Shown here: positions 8,681 through 40,013 of the stretch, in pieces
Numbering within the stretch: the stretch's first letter is position 1
Layout: every line of letters starts with the position of its first letter
NCBI GenBank assembly: GCA_964592945.1
Contig: CAZQGK010000001.1
Span: 9,224-49,236, forward strand
Source of the DNA: an uncultured Candidatus Saccharibacteria bacterium
Lineage (GTDB): Bacteria > Patescibacteriota > Minisyncoccia > Phycocordibacterales > UBA2100
Direction: 5' to 3'
Length of the DNA stretch: 40,013 nucleotides
Notes under the pieces: model-generated
Told to the model about the DNA's origin: nothing
Seen by the model: the letters and a program-made list of their open reading frames with translations, nothing else
The model's database searches: none
Program-made: the position numbers and the translations under genes

Positions 8681-10081
8681 CTATTCCTGAGGGTGCATCC
8701 GCGACATGGGTGCTGTGGATGTCGCAGTCGCCGACGGTATGAATCCTTCCTGCTCACGTGCCTCTTTCCGGATGCGGCCGCCCTGCATGATGAGGTCCAT
8801 TTCCTCCGGAGTCGTGTCGGCAATTACAACGTCGTCGGTAAGGTAAGGCCTGTCCTTCACGTCGATGTGTTCAGAGCCTAGGAAGTCCGGCTGCTTCTCA
8901 AGGCGCCATATGCTCCTGTTAAACGGAAGAAAGAAGACGCTCGGATGGCTACGCATTAAGAGCCCGAACAAGAGCGAATACTCCTTGAACTCGCCGAGGG
9001 CGAGGCGTTCGCGGGTGTGAATGATGTACGTCCGTATATCGCTCGCACCGGTAACGAGAAAAAGGTCGAGTAAGCTTGAGCGCTCCGACTCGACGAGGTG
9101 CCGGTCGAGATGCGGTCGACGCACACGGTCTACCATTGTCAGCATATCCGCCCAGTATCGCTGGTCCCGTGCCGTATACAGAAAAGTCGCCGGCTGATAA
9201 AAATACCGGAACCCCCGCTTGATAAGCAATTCGAACGGCGACTTGCCTATGCCGCCGAAACGCGCCTTCGGCCCGGCAATGGGCAGAAAATAGAAACGGT
9301 CAACGAGAGAAATTCTGGCGGCGGGGAGGCCGTTCGCGGGATCGCGCATGATGTACAGCATAAAAAGGTGCTTTGCCGCCACACCGTCAAAGTGCGGTAG
9401 CTCGTACCAAAACGGACCGTGCGTTTCAAGGATTTCTCCTTGCATGAATGTCGAATGCTTCACCTCCATGGCATGAAGATGCGCGTGTACCGGCGACATA
9501 TCGCCCGTCCGGAATCCGGGAAGAGACAAAACGGGCACCGGGGTGTCCGCGTGGGACGCGCCCCCCGCGAGCATTCGTTCACGTCCGTTCACCGCCAGCT
9601 CAAGTTGCTCCGCATTTTGCTTCATCAGGGCCAACATCCGGTTGACATCAGTGAGTGTGGTCCGGTTCCCCGTCATGTCGTTGAACACAAACGAGTCCGG
9701 CTGTTTCTCAAAAGCATAGAACAGGCGGTGCATGAGTATGTACCGATTGACGCTCTTGGCATATGCGTCAGACGCGACACGCCATCCGGCAAGTAATCGT
9801 TGTGCGTTCTCTTCGGTCGGAGCCGCAATGAAAACCCGGCGACGACGTTCGCTCTCTACGAACGCCCGCAAGAAAGGGAGCGGTACCGCATATTTCGCAA
9901 GCGGGTATCGGACAAGAAAGAGTCTGCGGCGCCATGAGCCCTCCGACAGAAGCGACTCGAGGTCGAGAATGGCCGACTCAAGTTCGTCAAGTGCCCGCCC
10001 TGCGCCCTCGAGATCCAGGCCATCGGCGGCGAACAAGGGGTCCGTGCGCACCAAAGAATCGAATCCCTTGAACGGCTGCAT
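8681..10081 (-). CDS. E-family protein E1: uncharacterised, no TM helix, paralogue of 24083..25441 and distant homologue of the D family
   Basis: The start is set at ATG 10081 (MQPFKGFDSLVRTDPLFAADG...), which aligns with the E2 N-terminus. TATAAT lies 7 nt upstream. The track's 552-aa version would overlap the permease gene. The stop is only 6 nt from the gap start. Confidence 0.7.
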   Translation of the reverse strand: MQPFKGFDSLVRTDPLFAADGLDLEGAGRALDELESAILDLESLLSEGSWRRRLFLVRYPLAKYAVPLPFLRAFVESERRRRVFIAAPTEENAQRLLAGWRVASDAYAKSVNRYILMHRLFYAFEKQPDSFVFNDMTGNRTTLTDVNRMLALMKQNAEQLELAVNGRERMLAGGASHADTPVPVLSLPGFRTGDMSPVHAHLHAMEVKHSTFMQGEILETHGPFWYELPHFDGVAAKHLFMLYIMRDPANGLPAARISLVDRFYFLPIAGPKARFGGIGKSPFELLIKRGFRYFYQPATFLYTARDQRYWADMLTMVDRVRRPHLDRHLVESERSSLLDLFLVTGASDIRTYIIHTRERLALGEFKEYSLLFGLLMRSHPSVFFLPFNRSIWRLEKQPDFLGSEHIDVKDRPYLTDDVVIADTTPEEMDLIMQGGRIRKEAREQEGFIPSATATSTAPMSRMHPQE

Positions 10082-10088
10082 GCCGATG

Positions 10089-10094
10089 ATTATA
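10089..10094 (-). promoter_or_regulatory. -10 box (TATAAT) placed 7 nt from the E1 ATG; implies a leaderless transcript
   Basis: The reverse strand reads tataat-catcggc-ATG. There is no SD, and the box sits directly after the terminator hairpin of the upstream gene. Confidence 0.45.
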
Positions 10095-10097
10095 CAT

Positions 10098-10129
10098 AAA
10101 AAGGACCGGTGCGGGCCGCTGGCCCGCAC
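10098..10129 (-). terminator. Rho-independent terminator after the permease gene
   Basis: Perfect 9-bp stem (gtgcgggcc / ggcccgcac, 10109..10129) with a 3-nt loop. On the minus strand it is followed by cggtcc and then TTTTT. Confidence 0.6.
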
Positions 10130-10137
10130 AGAAAAAA

Positions 10138-11541
10138 TCATTTCAGGATGACATCGCGTTCCGAACACGGATGATACCACCGCCACACTGCCCCGAGGAC
10201 ACAGAAGACAAGCGGCACCGAGAACGCGACGATTGCGCCGAGCGGCGGGTTGTGCTCCACGAAGGTGAAGTACGGACCCGCGATGGCGCCGCCGACAACC
10301 CCGATGAGAACCACCCACGGAGATACCGCCCTTGGCCACAACAAGACGACGAAGATTGCAACGATTTGCTCACCCCTTACGATGCTCATGTTTTGAAGAA
10401 GTACTGCGATGTCGTTGACACGCAACGCCATCACAAATCCTCCGATGAGAGTGATGAACATGAATGCACGGCTCCACGCTATCGTTTCTTCTTCGCTCGA
10501 ACCTAAACCAAACCGCTTTACGATTTCTGTTCCCCATACCGTTCCGGCGCTCGCGAGCTGCGAAGCCAGAGAGGAAATGAGCACGACCGTTACGATCAGA
10601 ATCACTAAGGGTTCTGCGGCCGGCAGAAATTTGACGATCTCAAGCGCCGGCAGCTGGTCCTTCATCAAACCCATTCCAAGCATCCGTGCCAAGAAACCAA
10701 GCGAACCGTAGGCAACCAGGATAATCGAGAAGAGTACGACCGACACAGTGCCGGAGAGCACGAGACGGCTCTTTTCGATCGCATAGTTTCGTTCAACCAT
10801 CTCCGGTTTTGATATGGCACCGCCTATCAAAGACACCGCGAACGGGACGCCGAACACCCAGAACACATTCATCGGCGAAAGGTCCGGAAGCGGGATCGCG
10901 AAATCAAACGGCGCAACGGGAAAGATCCACAACAGGGCGATACCCGCTGCACCCAGGAATATGAAGAAGATCTTTCCGATATCTCCTATCATTGTTCCCC
11001 GCATACCGTGCGGCGTTGCCCACAGATACGCAATAACCCCGGCGAGGATGGAAAGTGTAAGCATGCTTACACCAAGATGCTCGCCAATCCACAGACGGAG
11101 TGTCTCCTGATTGGCCGCCTGCAGCATCGTCAGGTTGAGCGCCATCGTGTATGCGAGACTGATGATGGCGAAGATGGCGAAGACGGTGCGTAGCAACCCT
11201 CCCGAAACGCCCCGGGACACGTGCCCGAAGACCTCCGGGAGCGTGTACCCGTCTCCCTTTGCATTGTGCAGAGCCGGGCCGATTATCATCGTGAGAGCGA
11301 GGGCGAACACGTTCGGGACCGCAAAGGCGAGAAAGTGCCAAGGGCTTAGGAAGGCAAACGTGCCGCTCGCAAACAACGCAAGCGGCTGGGTCCAGTCTGC
11401 CGTGTAGGCAAAAGACCCGCGCAGCCAACCAAGATTCCTGTTGTGCACGAAGAAAGACTCGAGAGTCCGCGCAGCACGCGGGGCCACGAGCACGAGGGCC
11501 GTGAGGATGGTCAGCGTCCCTATGATCATAGATGTGGTCAT
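10138..11541 (-). CDS. Polytopic membrane permease, sodium:solute symporter (SSS)-like
   Basis: About 467 aa from ATG 11541, with AAGGAA 6 nt upstream. It is hydrophobic throughout, with roughly 12-13 predicted helices. The N-terminal LESFFVHNRNLGW...TADWT resembles the SSS family start (FFxxxRxLG). The family call is tentative. Confidence 0.5.
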   Translation of the reverse strand: MTTSMIIGTLTILTALVLVAPRAARTLESFFVHNRNLGWLRGSFAYTADWTQPLALFASGTFAFLSPWHFLAFAVPNVFALALTMIIGPALHNAKGDGYTLPEVFGHVSRGVSGGLLRTVFAIFAIISLAYTMALNLTMLQAANQETLRLWIGEHLGVSMLTLSILAGVIAYLWATPHGMRGTMIGDIGKIFFIFLGAAGIALLWIFPVAPFDFAIPLPDLSPMNVFWVFGVPFAVSLIGGAISKPEMVERNYAIEKSRLVLSGTVSVVLFSIILVAYGSLGFLARMLGMGLMKDQLPALEIVKFLPAAEPLVILIVTVVLISSLASQLASAGTVWGTEIVKRFGLGSSEEETIAWSRAFMFITLIGGFVMALRVNDIAVLLQNMSIVRGEQIVAIFVVLLWPRAVSPWVVLIGVVGGAIAGPYFTFVEHNPPLGAIVAFSVPLVFCVLGAVWRWYHPCSERDVILK

Positions 11542-11641
11542 GATGGATTCCTTGTTGGTGTATGATTTTTTAAGGAAGAACGGCCGCTTTTTTGAGACAA
11601 CTTCCAAGAGTTTACCACGAAGGTTTCCGGAAGAAAATAGA

Positions 11642-12751
11642 TTACTGGGAAATCAGCCGGATCTTGATATCTTTGTTTTCTTGCGTGAAAGGTCCCGCTG
11701 TTTGTACAATTTCAAGCGGTAAAAAGACACCTTTTTGTACGAGTTCAAACAAAGTCTGCGTCGGTGTGAGGAACAACTCACGCGAGAACTTATTCTTCGT
11801 TTCCTCCAGAAGCGCATCCGTCATCGTAGCGCCGCGACGGTACAGTCTCAGGGTAATTTGGCCTTTGGGCGAGCCGCCAGACTGGACCTCGCGGGCTTCC
11901 ACACGATAGTCGTCGACATACGGGAACAATCCAACAACGCGGTCGAACTCCTCACGCCGCAAGGTGGCTCCGGCGAGCTTTACATAATCACGGCCTGTGC
12001 GTCCGACAAGCTCAAATGTAACCGGCGCACCACACCGGCATTGCGGCAAAAACCGCGCAACATCTCCTACGCGGTACTGTCTAATATGTTCATCCTCTAT
12101 CGTAGTACTTATGTACACTTCCCCCGCCCCGCTCTCGTCAGGACCGACGATGTCGATCGTGACACCCTCTCCGGGATGATACTGGTTGCGCCTAAGGTAG
12201 CGGCAATTATCGAGTGATGACAGTCCTCCGAGTTCGCTCGTTACATAGAGCATGCGTACTGCGGCATCCGGCGTCTTTTCCGCAAATACACGCGCACGAT
12301 AGGCGGTAAGCATTTCGCCGGTAAGGAAGACATTTTTTATTCTTAGCCGTGCGGCGGTAGAAAGAGTCTCCAGTACTGCGGTGATAAACGATGGTACCCC
12401 GCGGAATGTATCCGGAGCAAAATCATCGAGAAGCATCCCTACCTCGGGTACCAGATCTCTGATATCGGTCGCCATGACTCGTATCGGCGCATTGCCCTCG
12501 CAGTAGCGCACTGAGAATACATTCGTAAGACGCGTGCTCATCGTGCCCATACAGGCGACCGGCCGTACCGAGTTTTTGAATATACTGAAAAGACGCGGCC
12601 GAGATAGTGTCGCGATGACCAGCGGCCAATCCCCCGTCGTTCCGGAGGTCGTGCGCACTATATATTGCCGCGCTTCCTCTGGCTTGAGATTAGCCGAGCG
12701 TAGTCGCGCGAGCGACCGTTCTCCAATTTCTATCAGATCAGCACGTTCCAT
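11642..12751 (-). CDS. Short PaaK/F390-synthetase-like adenylate-forming ligase A1
   Basis: 369 aa with RTTSGTTGDWP (P-loop), YRVGDVARF, CRCGAPVTFELVGRTGRDYVKLAG and a C-terminal NKDIKIR lysine. It lacks the N-terminal FY..LY segment present in A5 and A6. Confidence 0.8.
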   Translation of the reverse strand: MERADLIEIGERSLARLRSANLKPEEARQYIVRTTSGTTGDWPLVIATLSRPRLFSIFKNSVRPVACMGTMSTRLTNVFSVRYCEGNAPIRVMATDIRDLVPEVGMLLDDFAPDTFRGVPSFITAVLETLSTAARLRIKNVFLTGEMLTAYRARVFAEKTPDAAVRMLYVTSELGGLSSLDNCRYLRRNQYHPGEGVTIDIVGPDESGAGEVYISTTIEDEHIRQYRVGDVARFLPQCRCGAPVTFELVGRTGRDYVKLAGATLRREEFDRVVGLFPYVDDYRVEAREVQSGGSPKGQITLRLYRRGATMTDALLEETKNKFSRELFLTPTQTLFELVQKGVFLPLEIVQTAGPFTQENKDIKIRLISQ

Positions 12752-12753
12752 AC

Positions 12754-13491
12754 TTAAATTAAAACCGTGTCCGCCGGTATCCCCGTCCGGTACTTTACGA
12801 TCGGCGTCACAAGCTGCGCCAGCTTCGTGACGACAAGTTCGCCGTTATTGTTTTCAAGGACGCAATTCGAAAGCGGCCTCATAATAGGCTCCGAAAGTGT
12901 CGCCTCAGCTATCGCCCCCGTCTCCGGAAGAGCGAGAACGCAGCGTACGGTCCGCGCATATGGTGAGTATTGCGTGAGCGAGTTTCTATCAAATGCGGCG
13001 CCGACAAGCGTGATTGCTTCAAGTTGTTCGCTACGGCCGTCAAGGTACGGCCGTAGCCGCTCAAGAGCAGCAACATCCGTGATGAGCTGATCGACCTGAT
13101 ACCTAGATGCCGCATACGATGCTATGTCCGCGTCCTTTTCGCCTATCAGCGGCACCATGCCTCTGTCATAGCACCACATCGACTTCTCAAGCGCCTCATG
13201 CGGATCCGTCATATAGACCATCGGCCGCTTTGACTTCACTCCCCACGGCTCCCGCGCGATGTCCTCAAAACTCCATTCGGAAAGGAACGGCCCACCGGAA
13301 TTGTGCACGATCTTCACGAACGCCCGCTCGTCTTTGTAACGGCGCTGTGACAAAGGGGCGTGTATGAAGTCCGCCCGCGACACGTGCGGCAAGTTGGGAA
13401 GCCCCTTCGCACGGCCCCAGTGCCCGCTATAAAAAGACGAGGGGGCCCTCCGTACCCAAGTGATAAGTTCTTCTATCTGCTCGTCCGACAT
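12754..13491 (-). CDS. B-family protein B1: N-domain-only ligase paralogue with no P-loop
   Basis: 245 aa with a PaaK-like N-terminus (SFYSGHWG...LPHVSRADF). The P-loop position is degenerate (VHNSGGPF), and GELVVTKL...KYRTG is retained. The stop lies 2 nt before the A1 start. Confidence 0.75.
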   Translation of the reverse strand: MSDEQIEELITWVRRAPSSFYSGHWGRAKGLPNLPHVSRADFIHAPLSQRRYKDERAFVKIVHNSGGPFLSEWSFEDIAREPWGVKSKRPMVYMTDPHEALEKSMWCYDRGMVPLIGEKDADIASYAASRYQVDQLITDVAALERLRPYLDGRSEQLEAITLVGAAFDRNSLTQYSPYARTVRCVLALPETGAIAEATLSEPIMRPLSNCVLENNNGELVVTKLAQLVTPIVKYRTGIPADTVLI

Positions 13492-13611
13492 AGACTATCT
13501 GTGAAGGCTAGTGAAGTGAGTCTACCACGCGGTGTTTGCCTACGATGCGTAGCGACGGTATCATGCGAGCACACGAGTAGCATGTTCATTATTGGAAGGG
13601 AGGACGGAGTA

Positions 13612-13917
13612 ATGACCGAACCGTTGCCTGGTACGTCGCCGGCTGAATGCCAAGTATCCATCGGGGAACTCGGCATGGAAATGCTGTGGAGCCTGGTGAG
13701 AGCGGTGTGCGTCACCGTCATTCTGATCGGCCTATCGTGTGGTCCGGTCATTGCGATGGCGCAATTCGGCTTGGTCGGCCCGGGTACCCACCCGGGAACA
13801 CTGACGCTGGCATTCGCTCTTGTCATGACAGCAGTCGGAACACTGACCGGTGCGATAACATGTATCGCACTTATCGGCTCCCGGGTCCGGCTTACCGCGA
13901 ACGATATCGCGATGTGA
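13612..13917 (+). CDS. Hypothetical small two-TM membrane protein
   Basis: ATG 13612 is preceded by GGAAGGGAGGACGGAG. It has two hydrophobic helices (AVCVTVILIGLSCGPVIAMA and LAFALVMTAVGTLTGAITCIALIG). A good terminator follows. I recognise no family. Confidence 0.45.
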   Translation: MTEPLPGTSPAECQVSIGELGMEMLWSLVRAVCVTVILIGLSCGPVIAMAQFGLVGPGTHPGTLTLAFALVMTAVGTLTGAITCIALIGSRVRLTANDIAM

Positions 13918-13929
13918 GCGACACATAGC

Positions 13930-13971
13930 GACCGGCGCCATCTAGGATGGTGCCGGTCGTTCGACTTTTTT
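13930..13971 (+). terminator. Rho-independent terminator
   Basis: 13-bp stem (gaccggcgccatc / gatggtgccggtc, one mismatch) with a 3-nt loop, followed by gttcgacTTTTTT. Confidence 0.6.
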
Positions 13972-14046
13972 GAAATGGGAGACCGTGTCTCACCTTGTAT
14001 ACGAAGAACGTTCTCGCTTCGGTTCAACAGGCCTTATACCGGCTTC

Positions 14047-14075
14047 TTGAACAACATATCCCCTTGGGTTATAGT
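14047..14075 (+). promoter_or_regulatory. Sigma70-like promoter of TctC-1 (TTGAAC, 17 nt, TATAGT)
   Basis: ttgaac at 14047..14052, a 17-nt spacer, and tatagt at 14070..14075. It lies about 50 nt upstream of an SD-led ATG. Confidence 0.4.
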
Positions 14076-14126
14076 CGTGCCTGTGGTCGTTCGATTATCG
14101 GATGATCGGGAGAGGGAGAACACTAG

Positions 14127-15068
14127 ATGCGCTTTATTCGAATGATGCTCACTTACGCGTTCGCGTGCATTGTCTCAGGTCCGGCACTCGGGGAAACCTT
14201 TCCCAGCCGGGCCATTACGGTCATCGTCCCCACTACGCCGGGGTCCGGGACCGATATCGGCACGCGGCTCATCGCCGACCATATGTCCAAGACCCTGGGT
14301 CAGCCAGTGGTTATTGAGAACGTGGGCGGTGCCATCGGGATTGTCGGGACGAGGCGCTGTGCAGACGCGACGGCGGACGGCTATACGATCTGCGCCACCA
14401 ACTACGGCCAGATCGTTCTCGCGCCCTTCGACTACAAGGCACGGGGCGAGAAACTGGGCTACGAAGTGTCGTCGCTTAGGCCGGTGGCACGAACACTGCT
14501 GTTCGATTTCGTGCTCGTCGCGCACAAGAATGTGGGCGCCACGCTTCCCGAAGTGCTCGCGTACGCGCGCGCACACAACGGGCTTACCGTCGGTAACGGC
14601 GGTACGACCGGTGAGTACGCCACAAAACTACTGCGTGGCCTGCAAGCCACAAAAGTGGTTTTCGTGCCGTACCGCGGCGACCCGCTTGCAATGGCGGACG
14701 TCCTCAACGGAAGCATCAACGCCGCCTTCATGACGGCCACTGTCGCACTGCCGCACCTCAAGAGCGACATAGTGCGCGTGGTCGGCACAGTGGGAAGGAA
14801 AAAAAGCGCCCTTCTGCAGACCGTCCCCACCCTGTACGAACAAGGGTGCCTGGCCTGCGGAGACCTCGACTCATGGGGCGGTATGTTTGCCCCGAATGGC
14901 GTGCCGGAGGACAGGATGCGTATCCTGAGCCGGGCGGTTCTTGCGGCGCTCCATGACCCGGGCGTCATCGAGAAGCTGGAAAAGGCCAAGCTTACGGCAT
15001 ATCCAGCAGCCCCCGACGTGTTCGCGAACGTCATCAAGCACAACATCGCGGAGGCTCAGAAACGTTGA
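14127..15068 (+). CDS. Bug/TctC-family periplasmic solute-binding protein (TctC-1), orphan
   Basis: 313 aa with a signal peptide, then FPSRAITVIVPTTPGSGTDIGTRLIA and ...VENVGGAIG..., which are Bug-family N-terminal hallmarks. SD GGGAGAGGGAG lies upstream. Confidence 0.85.
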   Translation: MRFIRMMLTYAFACIVSGPALGETFPSRAITVIVPTTPGSGTDIGTRLIADHMSKTLGQPVVIENVGGAIGIVGTRRCADATADGYTICATNYGQIVLAPFDYKARGEKLGYEVSSLRPVARTLLFDFVLVAHKNVGATLPEVLAYARAHNGLTVGNGGTTGEYATKLLRGLQATKVVFVPYRGDPLAMADVLNGSINAAFMTATVALPHLKSDIVRVVGTVGRKKSALLQTVPTLYEQGCLACGDLDSWGGMFAPNGVPEDRMRILSRAVLAALHDPGVIEKLEKAKLTAYPAAPDVFANVIKHNIAEAQKR

Positions 15069-15083
15069 GCCCTATGACCTACC

Positions 15084-16561: not shown

Positions 16562-16577
16562 AGTGCCCGGGAGTATA

Positions 16578-18164: not shown

Positions 18165-18171
18165 CCGCCTT

Positions 18172-18921: not shown

Positions 18922-18923
18922 AG

Positions 18924-22047: not shown

Positions 22048-22425
22048 TCACACAGGAAATTCGCGTCTCTCAACCTCGCGAACCCTCTCCGGCTTAAAGT
22101 ACTTCTTAGCCAGCACAAAAAAACGCTCCGCTTTGGCGTCGTTATTTTCTGAATAATGACAATAAAACAGACGGATATGTGCGGTGCCGGCTTCGGGCCA
22201 TGTGTGTATGTCAACGCTGGATTCTCCAATTATCACAGAGACCGTCACTCCGCCTGCACCCTCAAACTTTTTACTCGCGACCGGCTCATATACCGTAAAG
22301 CCGGCCTTGCGCACGAGTCCTGCAAACGCAGCGCCTAGATCTGCATCGGTCAGTGCTGCGACATTCGCACAGTCCTGAAAAATCCAGCCGCGATCGATGC
22401 TTATGGTATCGTTCATGGTCCGCAA
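22048..22425 (-). CDS. speH: S-adenosylmethionine decarboxylase proenzyme (small, pyruvoyl-dependent type)
   Basis: 125 aa with VIIGESSVDIHTWPE, which is the self-cleavage Glu-Ser site and the HTWPE motif. Confidence 0.85.
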   Translation of the reverse strand: MRTMNDTISIDRGWIFQDCANVAALTDADLGAAFAGLVRKAGFTVYEPVASKKFEGAGGVTVSVIIGESSVDIHTWPEAGTAHIRLFYCHYSENNDAKAERFFVLAKKYFKPERVREVERREFPV

Positions 22426-22428
22426 ATC

Positions 22429-28470: not shown

Positions 28471-28474
28471 GGAG

Positions 28475-29777: not shown

Positions 29778-29830
29778 TTTCATCGGCTTGTTCCCAAGCC
29801 AAAATATTTGTGGACACAAGGGAGGAATCG

Positions 29831-32908: not shown

Positions 32909-33883
32909 ATGAAGCTACGACCTGTGGCCGCGGCGCTCATCGCGCTCGCGTGCCTTGCTGCCTCTCCGGCGAAAGCCGCGGAGGAATACCCGTGCCAAGG
33001 AACGGTTCGTTTCGTCGTCGGACTCCCGGCGGGATCCACGACGGACGCCATCGTGCGTCAGATAGCGGGTGAGATGGCACCGCTTCTGAAGCGGACGATT
33101 ATCGTTGAGAACATCGTGGGCGCCGACGGTGCCCTCGGTGCGCGAAACGCGCTCGCAAGTGCAGCCGACGGGTGCAACTACCTGGCGGCGACCAACGGCA
33201 TGCTCGGCATCGAACAGAGGCTGGGGCCGCAAGGCTTCGACCTCGAAAAAGCGGTGCCGGTCGGCATGTTCGCCCGCAACTACCAAGTGCTCGTAGTTCA
33301 CCCGGCGGTTGCCGCGAATTTGGGCGAGTTGCTCGCGTACGTGAAAGCGAATCCCGGGACGCAATTCGCGCGTTCCGCGACTTCAAGTCTCATCGCTTGC
33401 GCCTACTTCGCAAAGAAGGCGGGGCTTGCGATGAAAGACATCTTCTACAAAGGCGATCCGCTGCTGATGCAGGACGTAGTTGCCGGACGTGTGCCCGTGG
33501 CATGCCCGTTCCTGTATCCGGTCCGCGGACAAATCGAGGCCGGTGCATTGCGGGCGCTCGCCATCCTTGGGCCCGGGCCGTTCAGCGAGTTGCCGACCGT
33601 CCCGGCGATTACCAATGTGCTTCCGGGCTCCGAAAAGCTCGGGGCGCTCGAGGGCCGCGGTTTCTTCGTGTGTCCTCCAGGATGTCCGGAGGCGGCCGTC
33701 GAGATGTTCTCGCGATATCTGCGGGAAATTCTCGCAAAGCCTGCAACGGTTACCCGCTTCCGCGAAAGCAGCGCGGAGGCGGTCTACATGACGCCGGGAG
33801 CAACGGCGTTGTACATCAAGTCGCAAAAAGCCCTTTTTACCGAAGTGGTGCGGGAAATCGGGCTGGAGTTCAAACCAAAATGA
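32909..33883 (+). CDS. Bug/TctC-family solute-binding protein (TctC-4), orphan
   Basis: 324 aa with SD AGGGAG upstream. The signal peptide ends PAKA and is followed by AEEYPCQGTVRFVVGLPAGSTTDAIVRQI and ...VENIVGADG. Confidence 0.8.
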   Translation: MKLRPVAAALIALACLAASPAKAAEEYPCQGTVRFVVGLPAGSTTDAIVRQIAGEMAPLLKRTIIVENIVGADGALGARNALASAADGCNYLAATNGMLGIEQRLGPQGFDLEKAVPVGMFARNYQVLVVHPAVAANLGELLAYVKANPGTQFARSATSSLIACAYFAKKAGLAMKDIFYKGDPLLMQDVVAGRVPVACPFLYPVRGQIEAGALRALAILGPGPFSELPTVPAITNVLPGSEKLGALEGRGFFVCPPGCPEAAVEMFSRYLREILAKPATVTRFRESSAEAVYMTPGATALYIKSQKALFTEVVREIGLEFKPK

Positions 33884-33897
33884 CCACGCTGGATTTG

Positions 33898-33929
33898 CCG
33901 GCGGCGCCCCTGGGTGCCGCCGGTTTCTT
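33898..33929 (+). terminator. Rho-independent terminator of TctC-4
   Basis: 11-bp stem (ccggcggcgcc / ggtgccgccgg, one G-U pair), cctg loop, then TTTCTTACTT. Confidence 0.55.
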
Positions 33930-33968
33930 ACTTGGAAGAATGTCCGCCGTGCAATACCATACGTTGAA

Positions 33969-34700
33969 ATGAGCAAAGTAGTCACAGCGCCGGAGATGTT
34001 TGTCGAATTCCTCTCTTCTGTTGAAAAACATATCCCAGAAATGGAGTGTCGTGTTTTCCCCTCCTCTTTCGATGCCAACGACCCAAATCTGCGGGCAATT
34101 CCGCGACCGGTGGATTGGCAATGGACATCGTGTGAGCGGGCGCTCCGGCACGCTAATTCCAAAGGCGTGATGATGCGGCTACCGACATTTTGGCAAATCG
34201 GATTACCGCTTCATGCTGCATGTCGTGCGGTGGGGATTCCCATTTTCGTGAACGAGCCGGAAAATATTCCCGTCGGCGCCATGGCCCTCAAAACAGGCGG
34301 CATTGATACGGTCGTCACGGAAAATCGCGACGCGGCCGCATTTGCGGAGTACCTCGTCGCGCAAAAACTGCCCATGCCGCGATTGGGAATACTCGTGCAC
34401 CGAATTGAAGACGCATGGGACGTGTCCCGCGTAGTTCTCGATACGTGGAGTCTCGTCGCGCAAGAGGTGCACGCATTTCCCGGAGTACCCGTACTCGAAC
34501 AGTGCGCCGCGCTTTCAGCAGAGAAGGCCTCGCGATTCCATCTCTCCGATTCCTATCTCTGGGAAATTACCGGCGACGAGACATTGATAACGGGCAAGAG
34601 TGGCGACCCGATACCGCTTTCCCGATACCGGCTTCCCTGTTCCCTCAAAAAATCAGGGGAATGCTCTTGCGGAAAACCCGTATTCGAGCGACGCCTATGA
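33969..34700 (+). CDS. F-family protein F1: N-domain-only ligase paralogue with no P-loop, second type
   Basis: 243 aa. The pattern EVHAFPGVPVLEQCAAL...FHLSDSYLWEI...LSRYRL...GECSCGK follows the PaaK N-domain and stops at the CxCG motif. There is no TSGTTG-type P-loop. The stop overlaps the A5 start (ATGA). Confidence 0.7.
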   Translation: MSKVVTAPEMFVEFLSSVEKHIPEMECRVFPSSFDANDPNLRAIPRPVDWQWTSCERALRHANSKGVMMRLPTFWQIGLPLHAACRAVGIPIFVNEPENIPVGAMALKTGGIDTVVTENRDAAAFAEYLVAQKLPMPRLGILVHRIEDAWDVSRVVLDTWSLVAQEVHAFPGVPVLEQCAALSAEKASRFHLSDSYLWEITGDETLITGKSGDPIPLSRYRLPCSLKKSGECSCGKPVFERRL

Positions 34701-35962
34701 TGACGCTTCAACAACTGCATGACGTGGTCGAGCTCTGCACGAAAAGCGGTACTTCCCCTTTTTACCGGAAGCTCTACGGGATGAGTGCGGACGAACCGCC
34801 GAGAAATATCACGACGTGGGACGACTGGCTCTCACTCCCCGTGTTCGGCAAAGAGCATCTGACGGGACAGACGCTTCCGGGCCGCGCCTTTCCACCGCTC
34901 CGGAACATCGACGCCGTACTCGCCTCCTCCGGTACATCCGGCAATCCTCCCGTATACAGCCCGTGGACGCTCAATGACGGCTACGGGTACCGCCTGCAGT
35001 ATCACGATTTCAAAAAGGCGACACTTTCCTCGATGCCGACACCGTTTCAGCAGGATTGGATACTGAGCAAACACCAGCAGAAAGGACGACTGATAATTTT
35101 AGACCCGCGACGGCACAAAGCATCGCTCCATCTCGCGCAGGTCATGGGTGTCGACAGTATGTTCCTTATTCTCCACCATCTGCCCGTCATTGCGGAGGAA
35201 ATGGTGCGCCTCGGCATGAACGAAAACATACGCTTCATTGAAATTGCGGGAGAGACGTGCTCGCGCTCACTATTTCTCTATATACAAAAGACGTTCCCGA
35301 ATGCGGTCGTCTGCCCCATTTACGGCTCGACCGACGTTGAGACAAGTCCTATCGGGATACCGTGCAGGCCAATTACCGGTGAAGAGCCGCTCGAGGTGTA
35401 CCACGAAGGAGAGCGCACTCACCTCGAGATAATCGACAGCGGAACAGGCGCGGTCCTGCCGGTAAAAAAAGGAGCCGAGGGCGATCTTGTCATCACTGCA
35501 TACGCCGGCGAGACAGCTACATTCCCGCTTCTACGATACAAAATCGGAGACACCGTTCGTGTTGTAGAAGAGAAATGTGAAAAACACGGGACGTGGTCGT
35601 TCACCGTTCTCGGACGCACGGAGATGGACTTTCTGAAAGTCCCCGGCGGGATCCTGCGGGCGGACTCGGTTGAGCGCACGCTTCGGGCGTTTAGCAACGT
35701 CGTATCGGACCGGTTCGAATTGCACCGGTACGAGCGCAGTACCGCGGAGGGCCTTAAGGTTGAGGTGGTGCTACATATCGAGGCGGCACGGAACACTGAC
35801 ATGGAGGCACTGGCGGGTAAGATTTCAAGCGCGTTGCATGTGGGCGCTTCGTACACGTATAACGACGGTGTAAAAGAAGGTTTGTATCTCCCCCTCATTT
35901 GTGTTCCTCTCTCGGAATCGCCGTCGAGAACGGGAAAACGCGTACGAATGTTCCGACATTAA
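34697..35962 (+). CDS. Full-length PaaK/F390-synthetase-like adenylate-forming ligase A5
   Basis: 421 aa from ATG 34697; the track start 34415 lies inside F1. Motifs are FYRKLYG...WDDWLSLPVFGKEHL, SSGTSGNPP (P-loop), YGSTDVETSP, YKIGDTVRV, GRTEMDFLKVPGG and a C-terminal GKRVR. Confidence 0.8.
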   Translation: MMTLQQLHDVVELCTKSGTSPFYRKLYGMSADEPPRNITTWDDWLSLPVFGKEHLTGQTLPGRAFPPLRNIDAVLASSGTSGNPPVYSPWTLNDGYGYRLQYHDFKKATLSSMPTPFQQDWILSKHQQKGRLIILDPRRHKASLHLAQVMGVDSMFLILHHLPVIAEEMVRLGMNENIRFIEIAGETCSRSLFLYIQKTFPNAVVCPIYGSTDVETSPIGIPCRPITGEEPLEVYHEGERTHLEIIDSGTGAVLPVKKGAEGDLVITAYAGETATFPLLRYKIGDTVRVVEEKCEKHGTWSFTVLGRTEMDFLKVPGGILRADSVERTLRAFSNVVSDRFELHRYERSTAEGLKVEVVLHIEAARNTDMEALAGKISSALHVGASYTYNDGVKEGLYLPLICVPLSESPSRTGKRVRMFRH

Positions 35963-35985
35963 ACGTAGTTCTGTACCGCCCCGCT

Positions 35986-36013
35986 TTGACAACACCTTGG
36001 AAGCCGCTACAAT
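35986..36013 (+). promoter_or_regulatory. Promoter of C3 (TTGACA, 16 nt, TACAAT) with the -10 box 7 nt from the ATG
   Basis: ttgaca at 35986..35991, a 16-nt spacer, and tacaat at 36008..36013, followed by cggagct and ATG 36021. This predicts a leaderless or near-leaderless mRNA. Confidence 0.55.
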
Positions 36014-36020
36014 CGGAGCT

Positions 36021-36272
36021 ATGCACAGGCTATCTCTTTCCGGGGTACGTCTTGTTTTGGTTGGTATTGCGGCGTTCGTTCTGGGAGTTATAGGTTTCTT
36101 TTCGTATACAGGTACGTCGCCGTCCTTCCAGAAACTATCCTGCAGCGTGCGCGACGCACTTACGAGCGTAAATATATTCCGCGATTCATCTCCTATCGCG
36201 TCTGCCGGATGTGAGAACAAAACCGGCGAGGATGGCGAGATATACTACGTAAGCTGTGGTGGCTTCTTCTGA
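36021..36272 (+). CDS. Tail peptide C3: 83-aa membrane-anchored peptide ending ...GEIYYVSCGGFF
   Basis: ATG 36021 lies within track ORF 35901..36272. It has a basic N-terminus and a TM helix (LVLVGIAAFVLGVIGFF). The C-terminal VSCGGFF is identical to C4. Confidence 0.7.
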   Translation: MHRLSLSGVRLVLVGIAAFVLGVIGFFSYTGTSPSFQKLSCSVRDALTSVNIFRDSSPIASAGCENKTGEDGEIYYVSCGGFF

Positions 36273-37002
36273 TAGGCGCACAACGCCGGAAATGCTGATT
36301 GCGGAGCTCTCCGCAATTGAGCCGCGCATTCCGGAAATGGAGTGCCGCATTTTCCCATCCTCGTTCAATCCAAAGGACACTGATCTGCGCGCCTTTCCGC
36401 GGGCGATACATTGGCGATGGACTTCGTGTGAGCGCATGCTTCGATTCTTCGGTGCACAGGCGGTCATGACGCGAGTCCCGAACTTTTGGCAGCTTGAGTC
36501 GCTCGTTCACGCGTGTTGCCGGAATATCGGTGCGCCGCTTTTTACAAACGAACCGGAGAACCTGGCCTTGGGCGCGGCGGCTATCGTTTCTGCAAACGTC
36601 AACGCGATAATCAGCGAAGCGTCAGAGACCGCTCCATTCGTATCGTTTCTTCTTGAGCGGGATGTGCCGCTACCCGCGCTGTGGCTTCTCATCCATAAAG
36701 CGGACGCGCGCGAATGGAGTGTCCCTCCTTCGCTTATACAAAATGGAATTACCGTAGCGCAAGAGGTCCACCTATTTCCCGGGGTCCCAATTCTCCATCA
36801 ATGCCCGGCTCTCGCGAGCGACAAAAAACCCCTATTCCATGTGTCTGATGAGTACGAGTGGGAGATGTTGGAAAGCGAGACGCTTATTACGAGCGCCGGC
36901 GGCGACCCGCTTCCACTACACCGGCTGCTCCTGCCCATTTCTATCCATGCCGCCGGGGAATGCGCGTGCGGAAAAACAATTGTTCAAAAGCGCACCGTAT
37001 GA
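36256..37002 (+). CDS. F-family protein F2 (paralogue of F1)
   Basis: 248 aa from GTG 36256, which overlaps the last codons of C3; ATG 36292 is an alternative. It is collinear with F1 (IPEMECRIFPSSF, EVHLFPGVPILHQCPAL, GECACGK). The stop overlaps the A6 start (ATGA). Confidence 0.65.
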   Translation: MVASSDRRTTPEMLIAELSAIEPRIPEMECRIFPSSFNPKDTDLRAFPRAIHWRWTSCERMLRFFGAQAVMTRVPNFWQLESLVHACCRNIGAPLFTNEPENLALGAAAIVSANVNAIISEASETAPFVSFLLERDVPLPALWLLIHKADAREWSVPPSLIQNGITVAQEVHLFPGVPILHQCPALASDKKPLFHVSDEYEWEMLESETLITSAGGDPLPLHRLLLPISIHAAGECACGKTIVQKRTV

Positions 37003-38252
37003 ACCTCGAAGCCCTCAGTTCCCTCGTTACCCGCGCAACGGCCCCGGGCCGTTTCTACCGCCGCTTGTACGGCATGAAGGAAGGTGATGCGCCGCTTTCA
37101 ATCAATTCATGGGAGGAGTGGAAAACGCTGCCGCTCCTTACGAAAAGCGACCTGCTCAATGAGCCGCTTTCTGAGCGATCGTTCTTGCCAATCCGCGACG
37201 TTGACTATCTGACATCAACCTCCGGCACGACGGGGACGCTCCCTTTATTCAGTCCTCGTACCCAACTGCTCGAATATGAGTTCCGAACGGAATTTTACGA
37301 TGCCGCGGGACCGGTATTTTCATCCAAACTAGTTCCACACCAGCAGGAACAATTCCTCTCCGCGCGCAATCTCTGGCCGCGTGTTGTCGTCATAGACCCG
37401 CGCAACCCCGAAAGCTCCGTACGCCTCGCGCGCGCGGCCGGAGTCGACGCCATTTTTGCCTTCCTCTCTCACATTCCGCTCGTTGCCGGGCATATGGTGC
37501 GGGAAAGCATTGCAGAGAACATCCGGTTTATCGAGGTTGCAGGCGAGACCTGCTCGCGGGCGCAATTTGAATATATGCACAGGACATTCCCGAACGCGGT
37601 CATTATCTCAACCTATGGATTGAGCGAAGTGGAAAACTCTCCAGTCGGCATTCCCTGCCGCCCCATGACTGCCGGGAATCCGCTCCCTGTGTACCATGCA
37701 AAAGATGGCGTCTATTTAGAACTCCTCGATACCAAAACGGGTACAGTGCTCGAACCGGAAGCGGGCGTTGAGGGAGAATTGGTCATCACCGCATATCGTG
37801 GCGAACCGGCGGCATTCCCGACTCTCCGGTATAAGAGCGGCGACACCGTGCGCGTTGTTGACGAACACTGCACCGCTCATGGCTCATGGTCATTCACTGT
37901 CCTCGGGCGCTCCGACATTGATTTTGTGAAGATCCCCGGCGGCATGCTCAAAGTCGACGAAATTGGACGCACTCTTCGCGCCCTGAACGATGTGGTCACG
38001 GACAATTTTGTTCTGCATCTTCGAAACGCCGCTGACGGAGCACGGACACGGGCAATACTGCATGTCGAGCCGCATGCGGCGGTTGATCTCGCTGTTTTAG
38101 CCGGCCGTATCGCCATTGAATTGCGTGTCTCGCCCACTTCTAGCTATGCCGACGGCGTCGCACAAGGTCTCTACGAACCGCTGATATGCCAACTCCTCGA
38201 CAAAGCACGAGGCGACATATATAAGCAAAAGAGCATCATCCTCGAGCCGTAG
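36999..38252 (+). CDS. Full-length PaaK/F390-synthetase-like adenylate-forming ligase A6
   Basis: 417 aa from ATG 36999; the track start 36858 lies inside F2. Motifs are FYRRLYG...WEEWKTLPLLTKSDL, TSTSGTTGTLP (P-loop), YGLSEVENSP, YKSGDTVRV and GRSDIDFVKIPGG. Confidence 0.8.
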   Translation: MNLEALSSLVTRATAPGRFYRRLYGMKEGDAPLSINSWEEWKTLPLLTKSDLLNEPLSERSFLPIRDVDYLTSTSGTTGTLPLFSPRTQLLEYEFRTEFYDAAGPVFSSKLVPHQQEQFLSARNLWPRVVVIDPRNPESSVRLARAAGVDAIFAFLSHIPLVAGHMVRESIAENIRFIEVAGETCSRAQFEYMHRTFPNAVIISTYGLSEVENSPVGIPCRPMTAGNPLPVYHAKDGVYLELLDTKTGTVLEPEAGVEGELVITAYRGEPAAFPTLRYKSGDTVRVVDEHCTAHGSWSFTVLGRSDIDFVKIPGGMLKVDEIGRTLRALNDVVTDNFVLHLRNAADGARTRAILHVEPHAAVDLAVLAGRIAIELRVSPTSSYADGVAQGLYEPLICQLLDKARGDIYKQKSIILEP

Positions 38253-38284
38253 GCATGCGGCTCCCATGTCCCGCTGCTACCCCG

Positions 38285-38293
38285 TGGTAAAAT
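38285..38293 (+). promoter_or_regulatory. Extended -10 element (TGgTAAAAT) 6 nt from the C4 ATG
   Basis: tggtaaaat at 38285..38293, followed by caccgt and ATG 38300, with no SD. Confidence 0.4.
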
Positions 38294-38299
38294 CACCGT

Positions 38300-38536
38300 A
38301 TGGTCGGACATCCTACAGCTCGTACTGTGCGATACGCGGCGCTTGGGGTCGTCTCGTGCATATTGACCATCATCGGCCTGCAGACCCTCACCCCGCGCTC
38401 GGCGACATTGCAAAGGATTCTTCACGTAAGCACGTCGGGGGACGGGGTCTTCGCCGACAGTGGTTCCGCCTGCATCGTTGCAAAGAAGAGCTTGAAGAAT
38501 GAGGTTTTCTTCGTGAGTTGCGGAGGGTTCTTCTAG
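38300..38536 (+). CDS. Tail peptide C4: 78-aa membrane-anchored peptide ending ...NEVFFVSCGGFF
   Basis: It has a basic N-terminus, a TM helix (LGVVSCILTIIGL) and the C-terminal VSCGGFF. D3 starts 27 nt downstream. Confidence 0.7.
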   Translation: MVGHPTARTVRYAALGVVSCILTIIGLQTLTPRSATLQRILHVSTSGDGVFADSGSACIVAKKSLKNEVFFVSCGGFF

Positions 38537-38563
38537 CTTTCCCCGATACGATACAATGCCCCT

Positions 38564-40013
38564 ATGCAACGGGGCCGTCGAGTCTGGTGGGTAGCAGCCG
38601 CTTGCGCCGTCGTTATACTTGCCGCCATTGCGTGGATCGTGCATGTTAAACGGTATGACTCGGTTGATATCTTTTTCGCTACGGCGCTACGACAGGAACA
38701 CATCAAGGAACGCGTCGTCGTGGATGGGATCGTATATGCCGTGTCAGACGGACAGGTGGTGCGCGAAGGCAAGGGAACGGTGACCGGAAAGAATGCCACC
38801 GACGCACTCCGGATCGCCTACGCGCTTGCCATAACCCGCCGGAATCCGCTCCTGTCGCTTGAAGGTACCGACCCGGACAGGCTTGAGCGTGCGATTGTGG
38901 AGTTGCAGTCCGTCCAGCAGGCGCTCCATGATGCACAAGCAGAAGAGGCGGACGCACGGGCCGTAGGCTCCGCACTTTATCCTATTGAATTCCTCAAGAC
39001 TGCGGCTCGCGTAGAACGTGCGCGACGGTTATTCCTCAAAACAGGGGACCAAAAAGATTGGGAGGCTTACCGGCTGGTGCAGACAGAGACGGCGCGTGCA
39101 TATGATTCCGACGCAAGACGATTTGAACAGGCATTTATTGAAACGGTTCCCTCGGATGCGGAAAAGATTAATGTTGTGGGGGGAGGAAAGATCTTGAGCA
39201 GGGAAAGCGAGCTTGCAGCAATAGCGGGAATAAAACACAACGCCGGCCTCGTTCGGAAAGCTCTGGAGGCGCGGAGTAGTTGTGTATCAGGGACGGTATC
39301 TGCATGCGAGGAGAGTGACATTGCGCTCCCTATTGTAGAAACAAATCAAACAACTGCGGCGTCGAGCACGTCTCTTGCCCTCGCCGAAGAGGTAGAAGAA
39401 ATATTAATTCAGTCTACTCTTGCGCCGTCGCAGAACGGAACGGAAAGACCCGCGGCTGCAACAAAGCAAAGACCTGTAGAGCTATCGCAAAGCTTTTGCA
39501 TCAACTCATCGGCCGCTAGTAAGATATTTTCCGTTCGCGAGCAGAAAAACGAGAATGGGGCGGAGGTAGTATTCGTCAGCCTTATCAGTAACATACCTTT
39601 CATCAAGGCAAGTTCGTTCGCCGGTACACGTTATTTTGACTATCTTCTTTCCAAAGGCATCGAGTTCGTCCCCCTTTGGCTGACATCTACCTATACATGC
39701 GCCGAGTTGGGGAGCGACTATGGCGTCGCGCTCGTAATGCTCTCTGTCGACGAGAGTGTGCGTACGCACCCTTTCAGCGCCTTGCTGAAAAACAACACAT
39801 TGCAACTCGCTCAAGTAGAGAAAATGATATCGGATGCGCCCGTCATACGTGAATCCGATATCCGGCGCTACCTCGCCCTGGTGCGTGAATCCATGATCGG
39901 AGACAACTGTGTGGTCGGTTATTCCACAGAAATCGCGCGCTCCTTCATTGGCGACGATTGCTGGTTCCACAGCAACTACGTGGGCGACACCGTGATGGGC
40001 GACGACGTGAGTT
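38564..40013 (+). CDS. D-family protein D3 (3'-partial), with an in-frame hexapeptide-repeat (LbH)-like segment at the window end
   Basis: Open-ended, so absent from the ORF track. ATG 38564 has TACAAT 6 nt upstream. I translated it by hand with no stop through 40013. It has a TM helix (VWWVAAACAVVILAAIAWIV) and the motifs ALRIAYALAITRRNPLLSLEGTD, SCVSGTVSAC, SFCINS and TYTCAE. The last ~40 codons read MIGDNCVVGYSTEIARSFIGDDCWFHSNYVGDTVMGDDV. Confidence 0.7.
   Translation, partial: MQRGRRVWWVAAACAVVILAAIAWIVHVKRYDSVDIFFATALRQEHIKERVVVDGIVYAVSDGQVVREGKGTVTGKNATDALRIAYALAITRRNPLLSLEGTDPDRLERAIVELQSVQQALHDAQAEEADARAVGSALYPIEFLKTAARVERARRLFLKTGDQKDWEAYRLVQTETARAYDSDARRFEQAFIETVPSDAEKINVVGGGKILSRESELAAIAGIKHNAGLVRKALEARSSCVSGTVSACEESDIALPIVETNQTTAASSTSLALAEEVEEILIQSTLAPSQNGTERPAAATKQRPVELSQSFCINSSAASKIFSVREQKNENGAEVVFVSLISNIPFIKASSFAGTRYFDYLLSKGIEFVPLWLTSTYTCAELGSDYGVALVMLSVDESVRTHPFSALLKNNTLQLAQVEKMISDAPVIRESDIRRYLALVRESMIGDNCVVGYSTEIARSFIGDDCWFHSNYVGDTVMGDDVS

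Follow-up and report, generated by a model that had tools for sequence, protein, structure and literature searches.

Genes and features of the locus

The analysed stretch of DNA, referred to here as the window, comprises 40,013 nucleotides from an uncultured Candidatus Saccharibacteria bacterium and carries genes of two related protein types, D and E, among genes for tail microproteins (C), ligase-related proteins (A/B and A'/B'), TctC-type binding proteins (T) and a multi-pass membrane protein (M1) (Table 1). The preliminary description of this DNA counted five members of the D/E family. All five genes lie where it had placed them, but the count is too low, as an independent assembly brings the number in this genome to at least seven. 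That assembly is 100% identical to window positions 33814-39894, gives a full length of 571 aa for D3, and contains beyond D3 two more tandem D genes (572 and 553 aa, each with four cysteines). The remainder of the window, 39895-40013, is a foreign left-handed-beta-helix-like sequence in frame with D3, and the join at 39894 is probably chimeric. In public gene calls, D1 starts further upstream and has 621 aa, and an overlapping ORF in another frame is chosen at the C4 locus.

Table 1. Features of the window, numbered from its first nucleotide.
Feature	Position	Strand	Description
E1	8681-10081	-	466 aa, cytoplasmic-type, no hydrophobic helix
M1	10138-11607	-	multi-pass membrane protein, 489 aa, between B1 and E1
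B1	11642-12751	-	ligase pair with A1, E1 cassette
A1	12754-13491	-	ligase pair with B1, E1 cassette
T1	14127-15068	+	TctC/Bug-type solute-binding protein, signal peptide; PF03401 E 6.9e-38
A2	18172-18921	-	ligase pair with B2, downstream of C1
B2	18924-20039	-	ligase pair with A2, downstream of C1
C1	20046-20270	-	74 aa; basic N-terminus, TM helix, mid Cys, tail ...FVSCGGFLE; directly upstream of B2
D1	20325-22031	+	568 aa from the ATG used; anchored, N-terminal TM helix, four Cys
E2	24083-25465	-	460 aa, cytoplasmic-type; 452 aa in public gene call
T2	25543-26535	+	TctC-type binding protein beside E2
B3	26606-27724	-	B-A-B ligase block between D2/C2 and E2
A3	27721-28470	-	same block
B4	28475-29626	-	same block
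T3	29810-30799	+	TctC-type binding protein beside C2
C2	30859-31095	-	78 aa; tail ...FISCGGFIE
D2	31133-32797	+	554 aa, anchored
T4	32909-33883	+	TctC-type binding protein downstream of D2
A'1	33969-34700	+	second ligase type
B'1	34697-35962	+	second ligase type; B' is a full-length PaaK-like enzyme
C3	36021-36272	+	83 aa; tail ...YVSCGGFF; directly downstream of B'1, not beside a D
A'2	36256-37002	+	ligase pair with B'2
B'2	36999-38252	+	ligase pair with A'2
C4	38300-38536	+	78 aa; tail ...FVSCGGFF; downstream of B'2, 27 bp upstream of D3
D3	38564-39894	+	anchored; truncated in the window by junction 39894/39895

Homology and distribution of the D and E proteins

The proposed homology of the five genes, for which profile-profile comparison had been set beforehand as the test, is borne out by hhalign, BLASTP and predicted secondary structure alike. 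A 5-sequence D alignment and a 17-sequence E alignment matched in hhalign with a probability of 98.5% and an E-value of 2.7e-15 over 377 aligned columns, which is nearly full-length (D2 68-520 aligned to E2 16-424). The BLASTP identities are 27-32% across 380-507 aa for D-D pairs, 41% across 447 aa for the E1-E2 pair, and 23-28% across 108-307 aa, at no more than 49.7 bits, for D-E pairs. The predicted secondary structures of D and E agree at 79% of 423 aligned positions, compared with 43% in shifted controls. The sequence blocks quoted for D (AL[RK][LI]AYA...SPL.AL.GTD, LYPI.FL...E..R.F, C-x2-G-x4-C, S.C and Y..C.E) and for E (DPLFAA.G.DLE and RYP...P..F.RAF.ESER.RR.F) were recovered, as was the contrast between RERMLAGG in E1 and RNRCLAGF opposite it in D2. 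Taken together, these comparisons show that D and E belong to a single protein superfamily, in which they form two ancient branches.

The residues conserved in both branches are P76, G82, D84, P121, F124, E132, R135, Y348, N490 and S492 (D2 numbering), and D retains ten E-conserved positions, among them the polar E132, R135, Y348, N490 and S492, at 85-100%. However, 23 of the 33 positions conserved at 90% or more in E are without conservation in D, and therefore D and E may have no activity in common.

The family comprises at least 906 clusters at 50% identity, 906 relatives having been detected when 1.84 billion protein representatives were scanned. The 150 matches listed of these 906 include 147 long sequences, 84 of D-type and 63 of E-type, and the nearest neighbour is of the same type for every one of the 147. 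All named loci come from Patescibacteria, and the superfamily appears so far to occur only in this group (CPR). In agreement with the earlier impression that neither protein has a recognisable domain, D1, D2, E1 and E2 gave no family match at E<=0.01 in Pfam-A, NCBIfam and PADLOC, the family matches of D3 come only via its foreign LbH-like end, and no Pfam family was matched by more than two of 70 diverse members, even at E<=1. A D/E profile search of PDB sequences gave no match either. Confident AF2 models were obtained for D2 (pLDDT 87.3, pTM 0.87), predicted as a helical bundle with an antiparallel sheet, and for E2 (pLDDT 90.3, pTM 0.91); neither has a Foldseek match in the PDB, nor has E2 one in BFVD (both at E<=0.001). 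As far as these models go, the searches show that the D/E fold is not recognisable among solved structures. Moreover, D/E are related neither to A and B (hhalign probability below 1%) nor to TctC. D/E is a large, previously undescribed protein superfamily.

Cysteines and membrane topology of the two branches

Conservation of the four D cysteines outside the window had been set as a further test of the preliminary description. All four are invariant in each of the 84 D-type proteins among the matches listed, and C219, C227, C282 and C350 of D2 were invariant in the first two D homologues from outside. Counted over 163 non-redundant sequences, the four D positions hold four cysteines in 84 proteins, none in 74 and one in 5, with no protein having two or three. 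Exactly four cysteines and no others are present in 41 of the 84 D-type proteins, and the full set is absent from every E-type protein among the matches listed. The statement that soluble forms have none thus holds at these four positions but not elsewhere, as E1 has no cysteine at all and E2 has five.

The N-terminal TM helix claimed for D was found as a clear hydrophobic helix (a 19-residue window scoring at least 1.6) in 72 of the 84 D-type representatives, the remaining 12 having a weaker helix or an N-terminally truncated gene call; E-type proteins lack a membrane anchor, as had been claimed. On the N-terminal side of the D helix the net flank charge is +2.5, compared with +0.14 over the 15 residues that follow it, and in 62 of 69 D proteins the N side carries the more positive charge, predicting the N-in, C-out orientation that agrees with the suggested extracytoplasmic location. 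Two features tested for in an exported protein are accordingly present in D, namely an N-terminal anchor oriented N-in, C-out and an even number of cysteines restricted to the exported forms. From these sequence features, the body of D with its four invariant cysteines is predicted to lie outside the membrane behind an N-terminal signal-anchor helix, and the E-type proteins, with no anchor and none of those cysteines, are cytoplasmic. The cysteines may form two disulfides, C219-C227 and C282-C350, which would stabilise the exported form, and C282 appears to sit in a D-specific insertion. Four invariant cysteines could equally coordinate a metal such as Zn, with a D body that may face the cytoplasm. 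This is nevertheless very improbable, considering that the spacing C-x7-C ... C-x67-C is unlike known CxxC-type sites, that these cysteines are confined to signal-anchor forms whose flank charges point to the opposite orientation, and that the cytoplasmic paralogs manage without them.

A conserved cassette with C microproteins and paired ligases

The genes around D and E form a cassette of C, the A/B ligase pair and D/E, often with T and sometimes with M, which recurs in 12 loci from Paceibacterota, Nomurabacteria, Kaiserbacteria, Giovannonibacteria, Sungiibacteriota and a Saccharibacteria-labelled MAG. Of 13 E genes, 12 have A/B genes at a distance of no more than about 3 kb, and type-2 cassettes (A'-B'-C-D) are without E. 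T is present in 7 of the 12 loci, and 4 have a relative of M1 at the corresponding place; no Pfam match was obtained for M1 and two orthologues even at E<=5. B' matches the PaaK structure 2y4o (E 2.2e-6) and NCBIfam PaaK models (E 1e-15), the matches of B/B' to PaaK, DltA and ANL models being weak, far below family cut-offs, and indicative of superfamily-level membership only. B is homologous to B' (hhalign E 2.4e-46), whose N-terminal domain in turn is homologous to A, a protein of 245 aa (hhalign 98.3%, E 1.6e-14). A is a truncated, non-catalytic paralog paired with the PaaK-like adenylate-forming B.

The C genes are closely tied to D. Three of the four in the window are adjacent to a D gene, with C1/D1 and C2/D2 divergent and C4/D3 in tandem as first described, and the pairing extends beyond the window, since a C gene lies at most about 100 bp from 13 of 16 D genes in the 12 loci, which span several Patescibacteria lineages, and beside none of 13 E genes. 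C is predicted to be a membrane microprotein with its N-terminus inside and its C-terminus extracellular. The Cys-Gly-Gly of its tail is invariant, and the mid Cys is aligned in 13 of 14 sequences and displaced in one. The tail consensus is [FY][VI][ST]CGG[FLI].., without an invariant Tyr, and the tails of type-2 cassettes end in CGGIY, CGGFF or CGGLF; this link between tail type and ligase type comes from two cassette lineages only and is effectively one evolutionary event.

D and E also differ in how they evolve. D genes have multiplied in tandem (a run of three in the source genome and of two at another locus) and diverge faster, with a mean identity within type of 27% versus 32% in E and 23 versus 33 conserved columns, and E keeps a syntenic position next to GAPDH and pentose-phosphate genes in several lineages. 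Such a pattern would suit a D that is a diversifying, disulfide-stabilised adhesin or receptor of the episymbiont, presented with C at the surface for host contact, and an E that, as its relative in the cytoplasm, has another, housekeeping-like role, without implying any common chemistry. Retention in D of the ten E-conserved positions would be unusual for a purely adhesive protein, and D accompanies the ligase cassette in nearly every locus, which makes this reading decidedly unlikely.

Comparison with known systems

In the Dlt system, too, the microprotein gene (dltX) lies directly upstream of the ligase gene. The cassette resembles the Dlt relay in logic and not in ancestry, an analogy rather than membership. 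The mechanism of Dlt and a microprotein shuttle motif at the extracellular C-terminus have been described (PMC12148441). Similar parts are seen in the cytoplasmic ANL-superfamily adenylating enzyme, to which B/B' correspond at superfamily level, in the membrane microprotein with a conserved extracellular C-terminal motif, to which C is similar, and in the N-anchored extracellular protein acting on that motif and the multi-pass membrane protein, to which D and M are comparable (PMC12148441). In contrast to Dlt, the cassette has no carrier protein, M has no MBOAT match, D matches no Pfam family and thus not SGNH/DltD, the C tail is [ST]-C-G-G-aromatic and not FXYXXF with an invariant Tyr, and both a cytoplasmic paralog (E) and a truncated ligase paralog (A) are present, which Dlt lacks.

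The likeness to PaaK phenylacetate-CoA ligases (ANL) concerns the neighbours B/B' and not D/E, and differs in that B is paired with the 245-aa, N-terminal-domain-only paralog A. In the precursor peptides mycofactocin MftA (...CGVY) and PQQ PqqA, it is the C-terminal residues that matter functionally. C is similar in being a short gene beside modifying-enzyme genes with a conserved extreme C-terminus, but it has a membrane anchor and a second Cys, and the comparison serves only as a lead; no class-defining RiPP enzyme (such as YcaO, LanB/C/M, radical SAM or ATP-grasp) was found in Pfam/NCBIfam scans of cassette proteins. Finally, the four secreted TctC-family proteins of the island recall tripartite tricarboxylate transporters and 'Bug' proteins, but only TctC (PF03401), and neither TctA nor TctB, was found among the scanned cassette proteins.

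Possible functions of the cassette

The T proteins raise the possibility of carboxylate scavenging, in which T would bind an external acid, M would import it with C as a small subunit, and the PaaK-like A/B pair would activate it. D and E would then be paralogous enzymes or binders of a small molecule or its conjugates, not of the C tail, with D freeing or capturing the ligand outside and E converting it inside. TctC/Bug proteins bind carboxylates, PaaK-type enzymes activate small aromatic or aliphatic acids, the polar conserved core common to D and E suits a site for a small ligand, the large number of paralogous cassettes agrees with there being several substrates, and CPR bacteria depend on scavenging. 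Even so, this explanation seems somewhat unlikely, given that the C genes are separated by 0-70 bp from ligase and D genes and do not abut T or M, that T is absent from 5 and M from 8 of the 12 loci, that M matches neither TctA nor any transporter family, and that the invariant C tail is left without a role.

The overall account that we favour, albeit tentatively, is that of a two-branch D/E superfamily in a cassette with a tail-handling relay. With low confidence, we suggest that the C tail, or a group that it carries, is what E handles inside the cell and D outside it. Both proteins would recognise one and the same chemical object, E on one side of the membrane and D on the other, the likeliest candidate being the conserved C tail or a group attached to it. 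The A/B ligase would activate a carboxylate in the cytoplasm, where E would act with it; the Cys-Gly-Gly tail of C would present or carry the product at the outer face; and D, encoded beside C, would bind or process the tail there. As the C tail is predicted to be outside and the ligase and E inside, a direct reaction between ligase and tail would need pre-export timing or a relay through M, the latter being hampered by the presence of M in just 4 of the 12 loci. Furthermore, if both cysteines of C form a disulfide, the tail Cys would not be a free nucleophile. A Patescibacteria-specific trans-membrane relay consisting almost entirely of unrecognised parts, in which a heterodimeric PaaK-like ligase activates a carboxylate, the thiol-bearing C tail carries it at the outer face, and loading and unloading fall to the homologous, new-fold proteins E (inside) and D (outside), must be regarded as unlikely.

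Implications

A large part of bacterial diversity belongs to Patescibacteria, most of whose lineage-specific proteins are without an assigned role. The new superfamily has confident structure models and no relative in Pfam, NCBIfam or PADLOC, and its single fold, occurring in cytoplasmic and exported versions distinguished by four invariant cysteines, constitutes a natural experiment. The microprotein genes are overlooked or assigned a wrong frame in automated gene calling, and recognition of a cassette that is conserved across several CPR classes and multiplied in one genome turns 'hypothetical proteins' into a testable system. The cassette would bear on how minimal episymbionts build or signal at the host interface, provided that D and C are active on the cell surface. 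Should the relay prove true, it would modify the episymbiont cell surface or make a signal, and would mean that the Dlt-type 'microprotein shuttle' principle had been invented a second time, independently.

Two Forms of One Superfamily

The anchored four-Cys proteins of the window (D1-D3) and its anchor-less proteins (E1 and E2) belong to one superfamily with two topological forms. Comparison of a D profile, built from the three window genes and two outside homologues, with an E profile of 17 sequences gave an hhalign probability of 98.5% (E 2.7e-15); the 377 aligned columns cover nearly the whole E protein. Pairwise BLASTP identities are 27-32% between D proteins, 41% between E1 and E2, and 23-28% between D and E. 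Compared with E, the D proteins are extended by ~80 residues at the N-terminus and carry ~55 inserted residues following the Y-x-C motif. The homology claimed in the preliminary description is thus upheld by profile-profile comparison, and every D and E motif quoted there was found in the alignments. Kinship of D/E with the neighbouring PaaK-like ligase proteins (A and B), the multi-pass membrane protein (M), or the TctC-type binding protein (T) was ruled out, as the hhalign probabilities are below 1%.

The family size became clear only through an exhaustive HMMER scan over 1.84 billion representatives with a joint D/E profile, in which 906 proteins were matched at E<=1e-3, 772 of them reaching E<=1e-10 and 265 reaching E<=1e-30. 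A word-indexed homologue search under-sampled the family, finding only two D and 15 E relatives from outside the window, to which the joint profile added none. The 150 matches listed of the 906, together with the window genes, provided 163 non-redundant sequences, in which the number of Cys residues at the four D positions (C219, C227, C282, and C350 in D2) is all or nothing: four in 84 proteins, none in 74, and one in 5. A clear N-terminal hydrophobic helix is present in 72 proteins of this set, all of which have the four Cys, and the 12 other proteins with all four show a weaker anchor or a truncated N-terminus. Among the matches listed and the window genes, 147 long sequences formed two clusters and no more, one of 84 D and the other of 63 E proteins, the nearest neighbour always being of the same type, with mean identities of 27% for D-D, 32% for E-E, and 16% for D-E. 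The net charge of the short N-terminal flank of the D helix is +2.5, compared to +0.14 for the following 15 residues, and the N side is the more positive in 62 of 69 D proteins, which predicts an N-in, C-out topology. Collectively, the four Cys are strictly tied to the exported form, and their presence in 84 D-type proteins extends beyond the window a restriction to anchored forms that had been noticed within it. We infer that they form two disulfides.

Ten of the 33 columns conserved at 90% or more in E are also kept at 85-100% in D, namely P76, G82, D84, P121, F124, E132, R135, Y348, N490, and S492 in D2 numbering. Other invariant polar residues of E, such as D273, D313, D325, R329, W399, and R400 (E2 numbering), are absent in D. 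The set conserved in D only consists of Y67, Y120, and Y150 in addition to the four Cys, of which C282 is located in a stretch gapped in every E protein.

Structure Models and Search for Known Relatives

In the searches run, the D/E family showed no known relative, whether by sequence or by fold. Scans with Pfam, NCBIfam, and PADLOC gave no match for D or E, even a relaxed threshold of E<=1 left no Pfam family matched by more than two of 70 diverse members, and sequence profile searches of the PDB with D/E found nothing, in agreement with the earlier statement that no functional domain is recognisable. AlphaFold2 models are confident for both E2 (pLDDT 90.3, pTM 0.91) and D2 (pLDDT 87.3, pTM 0.87). 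The two models, which share one alignment and are therefore not independent of each other, show the same order of elements, i.e., a long-helix bundle, a small hairpin, an antiparallel sheet, and more helices. The predicted secondary structures of D2 and E2 agree at 79% of 423 aligned positions, compared to 43% for shifted controls. The structural comparison proposed in the preliminary description was carried out with Foldseek and revealed no match at E<=0.001 in the PDB for either model or in BFVD for the E2 model; the best matches (STAT cores, PDK2/PDK3, and MFS transporters) had E values above 0.3 and TM-scores of 0.2 or less and were rejected as noise. An origin from mobile elements is without support, since tblastn found no relatives of E2 in phage records or of D2 in plasmid records. 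Literature searches for Patescibacteria/CPR with TctC, PaaK, or RiPP, and for the tail strings VSCGGF and ISCGGF, also found nothing.

Gene Content of the Window

The window, with a G+C content of 55%, starts with ordinary core genes, followed by an island of paralogous genes. Besides D and E, the island contains four microprotein genes (C1-C4), five ~245-aa genes (A and A'), six 370-420-aa genes (B and B'), four TctC-family genes (T), one multi-pass membrane gene (M1), two sulfatase-family genes, and a membrane-fused spermidine synthase with an AdoMet decarboxylase. A tRNA scan and an Rfam scan of the window found nothing.

Coordinates of features in the window
Feature	Position	Strand	Remark
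Core genes	1-8674		L25, PfkB kinase, split transketolase, Rpe, RpiB, GAPDH, lytic transglycosylase-like gene
Island of paralogous genes	8681 to window end
E1	8681-10081	-	working gene call
M1	10138-11607		489-aa multi-pass membrane protein
A/B ligase gene block	11642-13491
Gap at expected C site	13492-14126		635 bp
Small hydrophobic ORF in gap	~13600-13917	+
Stretch between cassettes	15146-18407
A/B ligase gene block	18172-20039
D1	20325-22031	+	working gene call
Stretch between cassettes	22048-24093
E2	24083-25465	-	working gene call
A/B ligase gene block	26606-29626
D2	31133-32797	+	working gene call
A'/B' ligase gene block	33969-38252
C3	36021-36272
C4	38300-38536
D3	38564->	+	working gene call

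The core block is syntenic with Patescibacteria MAG contigs (L005/L007, L018, and L020), in which an E gene also abuts or is near GAPDH. By this synteny, the organism of the window is a Patescibacterium in spite of its 55% G+C. The position of the E1 cassette beside GAPDH and pentose-phosphate genes, common to L007, L018, and L020, argues for vertical inheritance.

The two membrane-anchored sulfatase-family genes, the spermidine synthase, and the AdoMet decarboxylase are located between cassettes, at 15146-18407 and 22048-24093. Window-derived models of the sulfatases and the spermidine synthase have no match in the other 11 loci. All four genes are therefore treated as probable neighbours and not as parts of the system.

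The earlier count of five members was too low. The independently assembled locus L022, from the same population, matches window positions 33814-39894 at 100% identity and continues with the remainder of D3 (571 aa at full length) and, in tandem, two further D genes of 572 and 553 aa, so the genome has at least five D and at least two E genes. Window positions 39895-40013 instead hold a left-handed-beta-helix (GlmU/LbH-like) stretch in frame with D3, and the source contig probably contains a chimeric join at 39894/39895.

Conserved Cassettes and Neighbour Genes

Twelve independent loci were annotated with HMMs built from the window paralogs; pattern-based locus scans, which under-sampled the family, gave only seven genome and four metagenome loci. 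Two cassette types recur across the 12 loci. In type 1, D is divergent from C (tail ...[VI][ST]CGGF[LI][EDNQ]), accompanied by A and B in either order (often B-A-B, a triplet recurring in three loci), optional T and M, and then E. Type 2 consists of an optional T, then A', B', C (tail ...CGG[FLI][FY]), and D in tandem. Of 16 D genes, 13 have a C gene within ~100 bp, which carries the D-C adjacency described earlier beyond the window; none of 13 E genes adjoins a C gene. A/B genes are within ~3 kb of 12 of the 13 E genes, and one of the E genes stands alone next to a transposase. The association between D and C is tight and widespread, as is that between E and the A/B ligase, and overall the preliminary description was confirmed and its interpretation supported.

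B and B' are remote PaaK/ANL enzymes, of which the N-terminal domain of B' is homologous to A (hhalign 98.3%, E 1.6e-14) and A' (93.3%), the ~245-aa proteins being its truncated paralogs. The A copies in the window are without the [ST]SG[ST]TG motif, by which the ligase is probably a catalytic/non-catalytic pair; homology and motif loss together suggest a heterodimer of this kind. Relatives of M1 occupy the same cassette position in L008, L011, L013, and L018, and M1 has no match in Pfam, NCBIfam, or PDB sequences.

The C proteins are 54-86 aa long and basic at the N-terminus, with a single TM helix and, close to the end, an invariant Cys-Gly-Gly; the mid Cys aligns in 13 of 14 sequences and is displaced in the remaining one. 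For C genes directly upstream of A/B, the tail ends with E, D, N, or Q in 8/8 cases (CGGF[LI][EDNQ]), and for those directly downstream of B', it ends with F or Y in 6/6 (CGG[FLI][FY]); two odd tails, ...GFID in L004 and ...GFFE in L015, are next to A'/B'. This correlation with ligase type is striking, yet it reflects only two cassette lineages. The D subfamilies showed no clear relation to the tail type of the neighbouring C. Across genomes, D paralogs are grouped in part by orthology and not by cassette type, D3 with L004c (38%) and D2 with L004b and L015a (34-37%).

The E1-M1-B1-A1 cassette has no C or D gene, and the gap at the expected C site contains only a small hydrophobic ORF with no family match. 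On matching contigs, public calls give an overlapping 78-aa ORF in another frame (38266-38502) for C4 and omit C3, so that this conserved microprotein family is partly invisible to automated annotation.

Possible Function and Distribution

As a tentative proposal, possible but somewhat short of even odds in our judgement, E inside and D outside could act on the C tail or on a group carried by it. D and E would recognise the same object on opposite sides of the membrane, most likely this tail or its group, and the ligase would supply an activated carboxylate. The Dlt pathway comprises an ANL enzyme, the microprotein DltX, which shuttles an acyl group by means of its extracellular C-terminal motif, and the N-anchored extracellular transferase DltD (PMC12148441). 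It is a precedent for the logic only; the cassette is not a Dlt member, as none of MBOAT, SGNH, and FXYXXF was found in it. Several observations speak against such handling of the tail: the C tail is predicted outside and the ligase and E inside, M is often absent, and type-2 cassettes are without E, L004 (16 kb; four D genes, no E) being the sole locus with type-2 cassettes only. The two Cys of C may, moreover, be no more than disulfide partners. In the main rival reading, D/E would act on a small molecule within a pathway of carboxylate scavenging and activation.

Patescibacteria account for all seven named genome loci (Paceibacterota, Nomurabacteria, Kaiserbacteria, Giovannonibacteria, Sungiibacteriota, a Saccharibacteria-labelled MAG, and one unclassified), and the D/E family is widespread in CPR bacteria.
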